From NCBI GenBank assembly GCA_016933055.1, contig JAFGBS010000009.1, positions 780,001 to 812,000 on the forward strand: a stretch of 32,000 nucleotides of DNA, in the 5' to 3' direction. This stretch comes from Promethearchaeota archaeon (lineage in GTDB: Archaea > Asgardarchaeota > Lokiarchaeia > Sigyniarchaeales > Promethearchaeaceae). This document shows, piece by piece, positions 14,079 to 21,540 of this stretch. Under the pieces are notes generated by a model. That model did no database searches and was not told the DNA's origin. It saw only the letters and a program-made list of their open reading frames with translations. Numbering within the stretch: position 1 is the first letter of the stretch; each line of letters begins with the position of its first letter. The position numbers and the translations under genes were made by a program.

Positions 14079-15971
14079 ATGGTATTACGGTGGATCCGAA
14101 GGATAATTGGACGCCTAAGAACAAAACGGGAAAAATTTCAATATCTTTGGGATGATGAACTCGGGTACCATAAAATTATCGCATCTCGAGAATATAATTA
14201 TCTTTTGGAATTAATTGCTATACCCTTCTCCTTAATCATCATACCTTTTTTTCTTGCTTTCTATTTTCCTTACCCTGAAATTCGAGGATACGCAGGTTTA
14301 ACGGAAGGTTTTATGGCTTTTCTCTTCGGTGTGTTCGATATCGGGACTTCAAGTGGTCCGAATGGGGACATGTCCCAGAAATTCATGCGTTTCATTTCCC
14401 AACATAGATCTACCAGCCCAAAACGGGCAATCGGATATATTCAATTTTTTATATATTTCCAAATGTTTACAGGTTTAATGCAAATAACAGGCATCTCCAT
14501 TTATGTTTTTACCAGTTTAATATACAAACCGCAAGCTCATTTCGCTTGGTTTTTTCTAGTATATTCCTTAATCCAATTTCCAGGAATGCTACAAGTTTTT
14601 GAATCCAGCATTAAGTCCTTTCAGCGATTTGATCAAGCAAATCTGGTAATCTTTTTACGAGACGTATTCTGGTACCCCTTTTTCCAAATTGTACTCATGA
14701 GTATAGGAAAAGTAGTTGCAAGAAATCATCCTTATGGAGAAATGATGATACTTGGTATATTTTTCACCGCATCGTTGTACGTAGGAGATCTGTTTGCGTT
14801 TCTTTTTGGCGCTTATGTCTTCTCAAAGATACTAAAACCATTGGGATATCGAACCCGAGATTTATTCAAGAGTGATTTTATTGCTATGGGGATAGTAAAG
14901 GAAATTCTTAGTTTTATTGGGATAATTTGGATTTTCACTCAATTAATGGGAATATTCAGCCTATTAAGTCAAGTATGGATCGTTACATGGCTTGCAGCTG
15001 CTGCATCATTTAAAGGACTGGTCAATACGGGTAACGGGATTGCAAACTTGGGCTTAGGGTTTGCTCCTTCAATAAGTACAACTATGGCTCAAGTCTCAGA
15101 AGCTTATAACAACAAAAAACCAGAGTTAGCTAAGTATTATGTACAAAATGCTCTCAAATACGCGGGTTATTATGCTGTAGCTGTAATGATCCCCTTATTG
15201 ATCATCATTCCCAAGGCTTTGGATTCGATATTTGCAGTGATTCCTGGATTAGAGCTTTATGAGAAAGCAATTCAACTTCTTCCCCTACTTGTTTTTATCA
15301 AAGCGATGGACACATTTCGCCGGATCGGGATTGAATTACTCATAAATCTACATCAACGTAATAAAGTCATTGTAATGGAGAGTATTTTATATCCACTTCA
15401 ATTTCTCTTCACTTTTTTGTTTTTACGGGTATGGTATTTAGGTTGGATGGCGCTAGTTTTACCGTATTTTCTCGCATGGTTTATCCAAAATATACTTAGT
15501 TTGATATGGATCCAGAAGAAAGTGTTGAAAATTGAATACAAACGCGTATTATGGCAAGGTTTCGTGGCACCTCTTATTGCAGGAATTTTCTATGCAGGGA
15601 TATGTTTTGGAATCGTCGTATTGTGGGATCCAATTCTCCTATTTTTATGTTCTTTGATGAGTGATATCGTTGCTACTATTCTATTTGTGTTTGTATCTCT
15701 AGTCGGATTCTTTCTATTTTTTGAATTAATTTTTTATCGTCCTTTTTACGCCTTAGCGGGTGGTTGGGATACCGAAACATTAGGAACTTGGGAAAAGGCT
15801 AGGCACATCTCCCGAATATCAAACTTTCTGGTAGATTGGAAGTATAAAATTGACAATTTTTTTTCATCTAAATCCAGACTATTTAATCGTTTTCCCATTG
15901 CAAACTACAAGAAAGCGTATAAAGAGAGGGATGAGCTGATTGCAACGATGAAAAATAGACCTAAGGAATAA
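14079..15971 (+). CDS. MOP-superfamily (MATE/Wzx-like) multi-pass transporter or flippase
   Basis: 630 aa with 12-14 hydrophobic segments in two halves; assignment from topology and resemblance only. Confidence 0.65.
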   Translation: MVLRWIRRIIGRLRTKREKFQYLWDDELGYHKIIASREYNYLLELIAIPFSLIIIPFFLAFYFPYPEIRGYAGLTEGFMAFLFGVFDIGTSSGPNGDMSQKFMRFISQHRSTSPKRAIGYIQFFIYFQMFTGLMQITGISIYVFTSLIYKPQAHFAWFFLVYSLIQFPGMLQVFESSIKSFQRFDQANLVIFLRDVFWYPFFQIVLMSIGKVVARNHPYGEMMILGIFFTASLYVGDLFAFLFGAYVFSKILKPLGYRTRDLFKSDFIAMGIVKEILSFIGIIWIFTQLMGIFSLLSQVWIVTWLAAAASFKGLVNTGNGIANLGLGFAPSISTTMAQVSEAYNNKKPELAKYYVQNALKYAGYYAVAVMIPLLIIIPKALDSIFAVIPGLELYEKAIQLLPLLVFIKAMDTFRRIGIELLINLHQRNKVIVMESILYPLQFLFTFLFLRVWYLGWMALVLPYFLAWFIQNILSLIWIQKKVLKIEYKRVLWQGFVAPLIAGIFYAGICFGIVVLWDPILLFLCSLMSDIVATILFVFVSLVGFFLFFELIFYRPFYALAGGWDTETLGTWEKARHISRISNFLVDWKYKIDNFFSSKSRLFNRFPIANYKKAYKERDELIATMKNRPKE

Positions 15972-18377: not shown

Positions 18378-19007
18378 ATGAAAATTGAATGGATCGATCA
18401 TAGTTGTTTTAAAATCAACATTTCTGGAAAAACCATATATTGTGATCCGTATAAAATCCCTAATAATCCAGAAAAAGCCGATATTATCTTGATAAGTCAT
18501 GAACATTATGATCATTACGATAAGGAATCTGTCGGTAAAATTAAGAAAAGCACTTCAAAAATCGTTTGTCCTGCATCTTGTGAAAAAATTTTAACCAACG
18601 AGAAAGCTAAAGGTATCGAACCTTTCGAGACTATTGAAATTGAGGGGATAACCATTCAAGGAGTTCCAGCATACAATCCTAATAAAAAATTCCATCCTAA
18701 AGGCAACAAATGGCTGGGGTTCATTGTGGACAATGGGGAAACGAGGATTTATCATGCGGGTGATACTGACTTTATTCCGGAAATGAAGGATCTCAAAGGT
18801 ATAAACATTGCGTTTTTACCAGTTGGTGATACCTATACCATGGATTTTCACGAAGCTATAAAAGCAGCAAATGTAATAAAACCGAATATGGTTGTTCCCA
18901 TGCATAATTGGGATAAAGATTTAAATGAATTTAAAGAATTGATGAAGAAAGATGCTCCTGATATAGGAGTGATAGTACTAAAACAAAAGAAACCTATTGA
19001 AATCTAA
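18378..19007 (+). CDS. MBL-fold metallo-hydrolase (UPF0173/Lactamase_B_3-like)
   Basis: WIDHSCF, HEHYDH (HxHxDH), YHAGDT, VPMH. Confidence 0.92.
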   Translation: MKIEWIDHSCFKINISGKTIYCDPYKIPNNPEKADIILISHEHYDHYDKESVGKIKKSTSKIVCPASCEKILTNEKAKGIEPFETIEIEGITIQGVPAYNPNKKFHPKGNKWLGFIVDNGETRIYHAGDTDFIPEMKDLKGINIAFLPVGDTYTMDFHEAIKAANVIKPNMVVPMHNWDKDLNEFKELMKKDAPDIGVIVLKQKKPIEI

Positions 19008-19025
19008 AAAAAGTATGATGATTGA

Positions 19026-19913
19026 TTATTTTTTCTCTGCTTCTTGTTTTGTTCTTTTCTCAAGCACTTCTTCAATTTTTTTCTTTTCCTCATCACCCAC
19101 AGATTGCTTAATTTCATGGAGTTGTTCAGATTGAGTTTTCATTCTTTCTGATTGGAATGCTTTTTCTCCTATGTGTTTTTCAATTGCTTTCTGTTTGTCT
19201 TCAATTCCAATATTTTGGGTGGTTTCTTTCCTTTTTAATTCTTGTTCTCTCTTCTTTTCCGCTTGAAAAGACTTTTCCCCGATATGGATTTGAATTGCTT
19301 CCTGCTTGATTTTGAAATGAATATCCCCTGTTACTTGTTTTTTTTGCAGATCTCGATCACGAATTTTTTCTGATGCAAATGCATGATCACCGACCGTTTT
19401 TTCAATTGCTTTTTGTTTGTCCTCAATACCAATCTCCTTAGTTACTATCCGCTTTTGCATTTCTCTTTCTTTAATTTGTTCCGCAGTGTAAGCTTTTTGA
19501 CCCACATTTTTTTCTATAGCTTGCTGGATTTTTTCCTTTTCTATTTTTTCGGTTACAATTTTTTTTTGGAGGTCCCGATCCTTAATTTGTCCTGCTGTAA
19601 ATGCATGGTCTCCAACGGTTTTTTCAATTGCTTTTTGTTTTTCTTCAATTTGGATGTTCTTTGTCACTTCTGCTCTTTTTAAGGCACTTTCTTTCCGCTG
19701 TTCAGCTGTAAAAGCTTTTTCCTCAATATTTTTTTCGATAGCATAACTATGTGCTTGCATTGCAACTGTTCTACGCGCTTTAGTATCATCTAACGCTTTT
19801 TTCCGTTCTTCTTTTTCCTTATCGAGTAATTTCTTAATCTCTTCCTTGTCTTTTTTCACTTGTTCGGGATCAATTTCATCTTCTTCGATCGGTTTTTCTT
19901 CTTCTTCAGTCAT
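19026..19913 (-). CDS. Highly charged helical protein with six tandem 37-aa repeats, unknown function
   Basis: 295 aa, K/E/Q-rich; residues 58-279 are six 37-aa units each starting AI(E/Q)x. Confidence 0.88.
   Translation of the reverse strand: MTEEEEKPIEEDEIDPEQVKKDKEEIKKLLDKEKEERKKALDDTKARRTVAMQAHSYAIEKNIEEKAFTAEQRKESALKRAEVTKNIQIEEKQKAIEKTVGDHAFTAGQIKDRDLQKKIVTEKIEKEKIQQAIEKNVGQKAYTAEQIKEREMQKRIVTKEIGIEDKQKAIEKTVGDHAFASEKIRDRDLQKKQVTGDIHFKIKQEAIQIHIGEKSFQAEKKREQELKRKETTQNIGIEDKQKAIEKHIGEKAFQSERMKTQSEQLHEIKQSVGDEEKKKIEEVLEKRTKQEAEKK
19077..19742 (-). repeat. Intragenic tandem repeat, 6 x 111 bp with 222-bp higher-order period
   Basis: TTTTTTCAATTGCTTTTTGTTT at 19397 and 19619 (222 bp apart); translated units 2 and 4 share AIEKTVGDHAF...DRDLQKK. 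Confidence 0.9.
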
Positions 19914-20049
19914 GGTGCTAACCCTTTTTTTTATGGTTAAATAAAAAGTGAAACCATAATATATGTTTATGCTCTAATTGGGTAGAATATTAATCCATAT
20001 AATTATACACATTGATTAAATATTGTGAAATAGAGCATCCGACAAATTT

Positions 20050-21540
20050 CTAAGCTCCAGAAGTATGATTTTCCAACATCGTTGGGATCCAAGATTCTAC
20101 CAGCAGTTTTAGAGTAAAATCGGAACTGTATACACATTTTAAAAATTTCCCCTTCTCCAAATGATTGGAATTCTCAAAAATCCTTGTTCCTTGGTCAATT
20201 AACTCGTAATAATTATTGGAATAATCTTTTAATTTCAAAATCTCATTTACAGATAAATTTTCGATATTTTTATGGGATATCCCCTCTTTTAGTTTCAATA
20301 AGTCGGACTCTAATTTTCTTCCTTTCAGTGCCCAATTTAATGCTTCAATTAGATGTGTATTTTCAAAAGCACTTGTTTTAAGATCTTCTAATACTGGACA
20401 AATGAAATCATGTGTGGAACTGGAATTAATAAATGATTGGAAAACATCGAAGAAATTATCTATATTTTTTAGTAAATTAGTTTCAAAAAGACTAATTTGT
20501 GCACAATTTGTGCTATGTTTCCAGAAATCCATATTTAAGGGAAAATGTGGATTCCATAATAATTCTCCTATGATAGGAAGAATTAGGATTTGAAGATCCA
20601 AAGGAACCCTTCCCCCTATACCCACGGTTATACCATTTTTATTAACCTGATCAAGTTCTAGATCTGAAATAGAACTCAAAATTTTTTTGTAGTCGGGGAG
20701 AAATAATCCTCCTTTAGTGCAATTCTTCACTAAATGTAATTTTTTAGTGTCTAACAGTCTAAGTTCTGTAATGTCCTTAAACTCAATTTGATGAAATTCG
20801 CATAAGTCTTGGATTTTTATCTGATTTTCTTGAGAATAGGGGAATTCTGACTTATGAACTAAGGAAATATTATTGAATTTGTATTTCATCAAAAAAGGGA
20901 CTAAGTTTGTTAGTGCCTCTATTGTAGGTTTAAAACAGTTTAAATCCACGTTGATACCTCGGAAGATCCATCCAGGGAAATCCACAATCTGCATTTCAGG
21001 TAGAGTAATAAATTCCTCAAATTTATCAAAAAGAAATAATGTGTGCTCAATAATTTGGATAATTGTTTGGATTCCATAGTAAAATCCTCGAGCTGATGAA
21101 GATATTATCCAAATCGCTCCATTTGATATATTAATATAATAACTTTCATCCAAAGGTAGAGATGATTTCAATCTTTCTGGATATAACTCGTAACAGCACT
21201 CGTTTAGAATATTTTCAAACTGACGGATATAATTTTCTATTAATACATTCAAATCTCGCTTAATTTTAGTTTCATAAATTGATTCGGGTGTTATAATGGT
21301 GAAAAAATAATTCTCTCCCCAATTTTCATCCAAGTCACTATCTCGAATGGGAATTGCATTTAAAAAAGTGTTAAAATGTTTATTGAATTTACTCGATAAT
21401 AATAGTGCATTATCTTTTATTCTGTATTTATTGAGAAAGATTGTTAATAACGAAGATAAAGTGATCCCATTCTCCTTTTGTATCTTGATATATTTTGGGG
21501 TAGGAAGAATAAAATATTTATTTTTTACCAGTAATTCCAT
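20050..21540 (-). CDS. Glycoside hydrolase family 20-like protein (domain 2 plus degenerate catalytic barrel)
   Basis: ILPTPK, DESYYINI...ARGFYYGIQTIIQI, IVDFPGWIFRGINVDL match the GH20 N-domain and first barrel strand; no HxGGDE motif found. Confidence 0.7.
   Translation of the reverse strand: MELLVKNKYFILPTPKYIKIQKENGITLSSLLTIFLNKYRIKDNALLLSSKFNKHFNTFLNAIPIRDSDLDENWGENYFFTIITPESIYETKIKRDLNVLIENYIRQFENILNECCYELYPERLKSSLPLDESYYINISNGAIWIISSSARGFYYGIQTIIQIIEHTLFLFDKFEEFITLPEMQIVDFPGWIFRGINVDLNCFKPTIEALTNLVPFLMKYKFNNISLVHKSEFPYSQENQIKIQDLCEFHQIEFKDITELRLLDTKKLHLVKNCTKGGLFLPDYKKILSSISDLELDQVNKNGITVGIGGRVPLDLQILILPIIGELLWNPHFPLNMDFWKHSTNCAQISLFETNLLKNIDNFFDVFQSFINSSSTHDFICPVLEDLKTSAFENTHLIEALNWALKGRKLESDLLKLKEGISHKNIENLSVNEILKLKDYSNNYYELIDQGTRIFENSNHLEKGKFLKCVYSSDFTLKLLVESWIPTMLENHTSGA

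Follow-up and report, generated by a model that had tools for sequence, protein, structure and literature searches.

A predicted helical repeat protein family of Lokiarchaeia with unit lengths quantised at 35 or 37 residues, and its possible role as a periodic scaffold

A gene on the minus strand of the window (the whole 32,000-nucleotide stretch of DNA analysed here) encodes P0001, a highly charged protein containing six 37-residue units, whose relatives in other Lokiarchaeia carry the same kind of array, mostly with units of 35 residues. In the reading that we favour, with a probability of roughly 0.45, P0001 is an elongated helical scaffold that would show one docking patch per ~5.2-5.5 nm, the spacing of the patches being under selection. 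The first-pass annotation of this DNA had proposed a filament ruler or other polymer-templating protein. Its general form, a periodic binder or scaffold, is still plausible, but the argument by which it singled out actin, that 37 helical residues cover the ~55 Å between actin subunits, was not supported.

The gene and its repeat array

The gene, its parts and two flanking elements lie at the following positions of the window.

19026..19913, minus strand: whole gene for the K/E-rich helical repeat protein P0001, 295 aa, stop codon counted in (open reading frame list and translation)
19743..19913, minus strand: N-terminal head, residues 1-57 (aligns with the conserved family head)
19077..19742, minus strand: array of six gapless 37-residue units, residues 58-279 (translation, Tandem Repeats Finder and unit-core HMM)
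19026..19076, minus strand: K/E-rich C-terminal tail, residues 280-295, plus the stop codon (translation)
19938..19947, minus strand: A/T-rich TATA-box-like element TTTTTATTTA, 25-34 nt upstream of the ATG (read off the sequence)
19006..19012, minus strand: seven-T run, 14 nt past the stop codon (read off the sequence)

P0001 is extremely hydrophilic (GRAVY -1.33), with 19% Lys, 18% Glu, 3.4% Gly, 47% charged residues and a net charge of about +2. There are no Cys or Trp residues, and the two prolines of the protein both fall within its N-terminal 16 residues; the repeats are accordingly free of Pro, Cys and Trp, as first reported. The head opens with acidic residues and runs on into a conserved helix rich in Lys and Glu (P-E-Q-V-K-K-D-K-E-E-I-K-K-L-L...), and the tail is similar to the conserved family tail (...E-K-I-E-x-E-I-E-K-I-E-K-K-K). 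Upstream of the ATG, TTTTTATTTA is a plausible archaeal signal with a putative promoter role, and the seven-T run beyond the stop codon is a possible archaeal terminator. The sequencing runs listed as carrying the locus comprise one DNA run, from a sediment metagenome that may be the sample of origin, and no RNA run; the protein is presumably produced.

Residues 58-279 parse without gaps into six units of 37 residues, and the translation splits into the very strings quoted at first reading. Each unit contains the core A-I-E-K-x-I/V-G-E/D-K/H-A-F. Tandem Repeats Finder reports a 222-bp period (2 x 37 codons) at 19338-19742 with a score of 479, and self-identity of the protein rises at lags of 37 and 74 residues to 0.34 and 0.36, as compared to ~0.12-0.15 at other lags. 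A unit-core HMM built solely from the 35-residue relatives places the six cores at intervals of 37, 37, 37, 37 and 37 residues. The ABAB higher-order pattern described in the first-pass annotation is real but modest, because alternate units (pairs 1/3, 2/4 and 1/5) share 67-69% DNA identity while neighbouring units share 59%. Over all unit pairs, DNA identity ranges from 50 to 69% with no indels. Divergence of this extent without a single indel marks the array as old, neither a recent duplication nor an assembly artefact. The same annotation had called attention to a repeated 14-codon block and deduced selection on the protein sequence from it. The block, KQKAIEKTVGDHAF, begins at residues 92 and 166, with its copies 222 bp apart, and the copies differ at four nucleotides, of which four are synonymous and none non-synonymous. 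Purifying selection on the protein sequence follows from these differences, and the deduction was sound.

Relatives and unit length

Used as the sole query against 61 related genomes, its own included, P0001 found homologues in 41, with a best per-genome E of 1.4e-25 and matches that span the head, the units and the tail. We label the taxonomic families of these genomes f1 (the family of G000, the genome of P0001), f3 (a sister family) and f4 (another family); the homologues occur in 38/42 genomes of f3, 2/4 of f4 and 0/13 of the others in f1. Searched across the class, a family profile gave 110/135 for f3, 2/4 for f4, 0/13 for the other f1 genomes and 0/8 for f2 and f5-f7 together. Within its own family the repeat protein is thus found in one of 14 genomes, namely G000, and the 13 negative genomes include three single-contig genomes. 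The lack of a match in G001, a genome of the same genus, carries no information, as the contig there ends beside the expected locus, within the orthologue of the neighbouring GH20-like gene (G001:C124:77-1186). Assemblies often break in or right beside the repeat gene, as at this contig and at L051, L057, L061 and L063-L066, and calls of absence in draft genomes are therefore unreliable.

A phmmer search over 1.8 billion representatives returned nine weak matches, every one of them to this family or its fragments, including an 80-aa fragment, 86% identical, on a 556-bp contig. A word-indexed homologue search yielded no match for P0001 and four for the family profile, nearly empty results that arise because K/E-rich words swamp the index. 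Named records with relatives are metagenome-assembled genomes of Promethearchaeota/Promethearchaeia, confirming that the host is a Loki-type Asgard archaeon. Judged by these matches, P0001 is a divergent member of an apparently Asgard-only family confined to Lokiarchaeia (Promethearchaeia), and there to part of one order. We found no published description of the repeat family in the literature on archaeal 35-residue repeats or on Asgard actin-binding repeats and nebulin.

Searches of P0001 against Pfam, NCBIfam and PDB sequences gave nothing meaningful; a match to a known repeat family of unrelated function, which the first-pass annotation had named as adverse to its idea, was not seen. Scattered Pfam matches did appear among 23 relatives, for example to Entericidin and UBA_SIK3. 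Entericidin (12/23, best E 5.9e-10) was set aside as presumably reflecting short motif matches summed over the repeats, which presumably come from the linker/core segment of the P-D-I-E-K-T-G-E-A-I-S-K-S type; UBA_SIK3 (7/23) was likewise taken as a repeat-summed short-motif artefact.

In members of the family, 3-12 units lie between a head at the N terminus and a K/E-rich tail, both of them conserved. The head is a helix of the P-E-E-I-E-K-Q-K-K-I-V...Y-K-K-E-K-E-E-R type; in many genomes matches begin at P0001 residues 4-14, and the family alignment has invariant or near-invariant columns within residues 17-52. The core common to the units is A-I-x3-I/V-x-E-K-A-F. Among 175 units of 35 residues from 19 orthologues, conservation reaches 98% at I2, 99% at K9, 99% at F/Y11, 100% at R/K17 and 95% at E18, and the linker holds a Pro-Asp pair (positions 28-29) and turns at a Gly-x-Gly (32-34). 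Units of one protein are only ~50% identical to each other. Compared with the 35-residue Lokiarchaeia relatives (L002-L032), P0001 is homologous across head, units and tail at 33-40% identity, and the unit core, the predicted long helices and the varying copy number are common to both. It differs in its 37-residue units, in the loss of the linker Pro-Asp and Gly-x-Gly, in an array of just six units whose higher-order repeat spans two units instead of three, and in lying outside the conserved DUF362 and 250-aa-gene neighbourhood, in a different taxonomic family.

Applied to all sequences gathered, the unit-core HMM measured 330 core-to-core intervals, of which 311 are 35 residues long, 15 are 37 (19 were counted, 15 once duplicate records were dropped), three are 32 and one is 36. 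Besides P0001, the 37-residue members are L047, L048 and one f3 genus (L058), and the distinct 37-residue intervals come from P0001 and two other loci; their spacing makes 37 residues a second length class of the family. L047, a metagenomic contig, has at least nine units of 37 residues with a 3 x 37 super-repeat and lies behind the usual upstream gene. P0007, a syntenic orthologue, mixes spacings of 35, 32 and 36, and the f4 forms keep the head and first units and then continue with a different repeat. The first-pass annotation had proposed to check whether the 37-residue period is invariant among orthologues and had named a variable unit length as refuting its idea, and a variable unit length is what this census shows; a tight constraint on unit length is nonetheless visible in the quantised spacings. 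In an alignment of unit consensus sequences, the two extra residues of the 37-residue unit map to the linker, between positions 26 and 30 of the 35-residue unit.

More than 300 intervals without indels, at ~50% unit divergence and with near-invariant positions, argue for a functional constraint on spacing or helical phase, and a module length held at 35 or 37 over so many intervals clearly points to an interaction that depends on spacing. Duplication of units as arrays grow, rather than selection, could in part explain why unit length is uniform inside an array. What the P0001 locus adds is the 37-residue length class and a member found in a second taxonomic family and away from the neighbourhood that is conserved elsewhere; it extends the family beyond the lineage dominated by the 35-residue form, and its analysis supplies a wider census of unit lengths. 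A whole array can switch unit length by two linker residues, and any model of a partner must allow for that.

Two further observations concern the coding sequences. The start codon of most 35-residue orthologues appears to be TTG (L003-L020; e.g. L005:1492, L007:1492 and L014:2265) where P0001, L002 and L013 carry ATG, an unusually large share of TTG starts within the repeat family, with the start position itself conserved. The reading frame at L047:450-1631 has one in-frame stop after 152 codons, beyond which six or more further units of the array follow with no change of frame. At the 3.6x coverage of this contig, the stop could reflect a sequencing error, recoding or a pseudogene. The matches of G036, G053, G070 and G078 contain in-frame TAA stops as well.

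Predicted helices and possible roles

With the family alignment as input, AlphaFold2 (AF2) predicts two long helices for P0001, at residues 16-159 and 166-294 (mean pLDDT 74, pTM 0.26). Confidence peaks in the N-terminal head (pLDDT 93-95), where the hydrophobic moment is also highest. The 35-residue orthologue L002 is predicted to form equally long helices despite its prolines (pLDDT 68, pTM 0.20). Confidence in the predicted rod of P0001 is moderate and its pTM low, and AF2 also draws long lone helices for disordered charged sequences. Helix-helix packing is absent from both models, so the compact solenoid that would have spoken against the first reading was not seen; in line with that reading, the monomer predictions are of long, near-continuous helices. 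Against an alpha-solenoid of the TPR, PPR, TALE or similar kind stand the unpacked models, a Foldseek search of the PDB that gave no match for the predicted model, and a family-profile match to a designer PPR at no better than E 0.45. The other PDB matches of the family profile are likewise at noise level (designed antiparallel helix bundles, E ~0.008; ApoA-IV, E 0.014).

Residues of opposite charge are enriched at i+3 and i+4 (z ~2-4; 2.2-3.0 in the comparison with ER/K helices), as expected of helix-stabilising salt bridges. The hydrophobic moment of the repeats is low (mean 0.19), and the strongest hydrophobicity harmonic of P0001 is at 4.64 residues (37/8), those at 3.5-3.7 being weak; the low moment and the non-dominant alpha-helical harmonic leave no obvious single binding face. 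P0001 resembles the ER/K single alpha-helix (SAH) in its high content of Glu, Lys and Arg, its i+3/i+4 charge pairs and its predicted lone helix. It departs from an SAH in that every unit combines a conserved hydrophobic/aromatic motif with an exact length, neither of which an SAH spacer requires. Classic SAH domains have a charged fraction above 47%, and P0001, at 47%, lies below them.

In the reading that we favour, P0001 would be a cytoplasmic, highly charged alpha-helical rod whose ~280 helical residues would span ~40 nm if straight. Each unit would consist of a conserved patch (A-I-x3-I/V-x-E-K-A-F plus R17/E18), a charged helix rich in salt bridges and a short linker, so that the same putative docking surface would recur every ~5.2-5.5 nm between the conserved head and tail. 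If these patches are binding sites, as we infer, the protein could act as a multivalent lateral scaffold or spacer, its units docking at evenly spaced sites along a periodic partner, and it would be this partner that makes the spacing important. Such a partner might be some filament or lattice, or else other copies of the repeat protein. Varying copy number (3-12 units) between a conserved head and tail is as expected for a multivalent protein of adjustable length. Since whole arrays are built on one unit length or the other, 35 residues or 37, any partner lattice would have to accommodate a ~6% change in spacing. The partner, once found, could reveal a new structural system in the cells of Lokiarchaeia.

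Composition alone would account for the repeats if P0001 were a disordered hydrophilic protectant or entropic spacer of the LEA or hydrophilin kind. The extreme hydrophilicity, the lack of Cys and Trp, the low-confidence ESM Atlas model (pLDDT 0.58) and the lack of a fold match agree with such a protein. The ESM Atlas gave no usable feature matches, and its structure rows had TM no higher than 0.34. More than 300 indel-free intervals and near-invariant positions are not expected of it, and Pfam scans of the family found no LEA family. Hydrophilins are defined by Gly above ~6%, and the 3.4% of P0001 falls short of this. We consider a disordered protectant very unlikely.

The spacing could also be set from within, by a self-assembling coiled coil or filament former in which two or more chains align laterally, either in register or offset by a whole number of units. 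Such pairing needs equal length of all units in one array and lets that length vary between lineages, and the array-wide switch between 35 and 37 residues fits an internal register constraint of this sort at least as well as it fits a fixed external lattice. Thirty-five residues make five heptads, the 3.5 and 7.0 hydrophobicity harmonics are the strongest in several 35-residue orthologues, and the only PDB profile matches, weak as they are, are to designed antiparallel helix bundles of similar unit length (E ~0.008). The heptads themselves are poor: in a register anchored on I2 of the 35-residue relatives, the invariant K9 as well as Q16 and R23 land at core position 'a', and Pro and Gly-x-Gly occur in every unit. 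P0001 lacks a continuous heptad pattern with hydrophobic a and d positions, its 3.5-3.7 harmonics are weak, and a GRAVY of -1.33 with 47% charge is adverse to a coiled coil. A two-copy complex prediction for P0001 scored 0.00, which gives no verdict and weighs neither for nor against a homodimer. On balance, we regard self-assembly through paired chains as unlikely. Tropomyosin (PF00261) and other coiled coils of two strands are comparable in their long, unbroken helix and their quasi-repeats of ~39 residues for each actin subunit, but the likeness is limited in the same way: the repeat family has no continuous heptad core, places charged residues at would-be core positions and has no match to the Pfam family.

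An analogy can also be drawn with exchangeable apolipoproteins (ApoA-IV, PDB 3s84) and GvpC, the outer protein of gas vesicles, all of them proteins with tandem helical repeats along a surface, which the 35-residue relatives resemble further in being punctuated by Pro. The profile match to ApoA-IV (E 0.014) is at noise level and does not keep register (22-mer versus 35-mer), and the hydrophobic moment of the repeats is low. The gas vesicle shell protein GvpA (PF00741), with which GvpC co-occurs, gave no signal in G000 and four f3 genomes; the control genomes likewise gave no signal.

An external filament of actin was the specific partner suggested by the first-pass annotation. In such a case P0001 would bind the sides of Lokiactin filaments in the manner of nebulin or tropomyosin, each of its units matching a single actin subunit of the strand. 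The in situ rise of Lokiactin is 27.9 Å per subunit, or 55.8 Å along one strand (PMC9834061), and 37 residues at 1.5 Å each give 55.5 Å. The premise that a Loki-type Asgard host encodes actin was correct, as G000 has three actin-family genes, including a Lokiactin gene at C6:299695-300807. The simple repeats of nebulin (PF00880) offer an analogy of design, with ~35-residue units, one conserved motif in each, super-repeats and varying copy number in an elongated helical molecule, and the strict unit length of P0001 adds to this resemblance. The analogy stops at design: P0001 is a far shorter protein, its motif differs from SDxxYK, and the Nebulin profile has no match in P0001 at E <= 10 and none in 23 family members at E <= 0.1. 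Scans of P0001 and 23 relatives also found no Tropomyosin or other actin-binding Pfam family, and no GvpC, LEA or apolipoprotein family.

The match to 55 Å carries little weight, because adjustment of the linker would fit almost any unit of 33-40 residues. It moreover fails for the majority of the family, whose 35 residues would cover 52.5 Å if helical, unless the linker stretches, and units of 32, 36 and 37 residues are found besides. All three actin-family genes of G000 lie on contigs other than that of P0001, with no gene linkage. The range of the family is far narrower than that of Lokiactin, covering part of one order and missing from 13/13 other f1 genomes, and Lokiactin is described among the most conserved Asgard signature proteins (PMC9834061). 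There is no positive evidence for an actin link in sequence, gene context or phyletic range. We therefore see little chance that P0001 binds the sides of Lokiactin filaments. The broader proposal by analogy, that the family would be an archaeal counterpart of nebulin or tropomyosin, stabilising or spacing Lokiactin or another Asgard polymer over a length of filament set by copy number, is to our minds a long shot. If true, filament-decorating ruler proteins would predate eukaryogenesis.

Gene neighbourhood

The P0001 gene is flanked by genes for an MBL-fold hydrolase and a GH20b-like protein, and nearby are AsnC-type and other HTH regulators, a Dus gene and a phosphoesterase gene. None of these neighbours in the window points to a function. 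The GH20b-like gene (20050-21540, minus strand, 496 aa) matches the small domain 2 of GH20 (PF02838) and not the catalytic domain, and of five genomes of the family the same-genus one alone has an orthologue. At 14079-15971 on the plus strand lies a 630-aa open reading frame with no Pfam family at E <= 0.001.

Gene order in f3 runs through ABC transporters, PadR, DUF362, a 250-aa gene, the repeat gene, a convergent 165-aa gene and a radical SAM gene. Because this entire large block is conserved, adjacency within it says little about function. The 250-aa gene of G000 is 427 kb from the repeat gene. The convergent 165-aa gene adjoins the repeat gene both in f3 and at the irregular orthologue P0007 (L021:9001-9504 and L049:3939-4433, both minus strand), and its product has a sub-threshold match to the first longin domain of FUZ/MON1/HPS1 (E 0.013).
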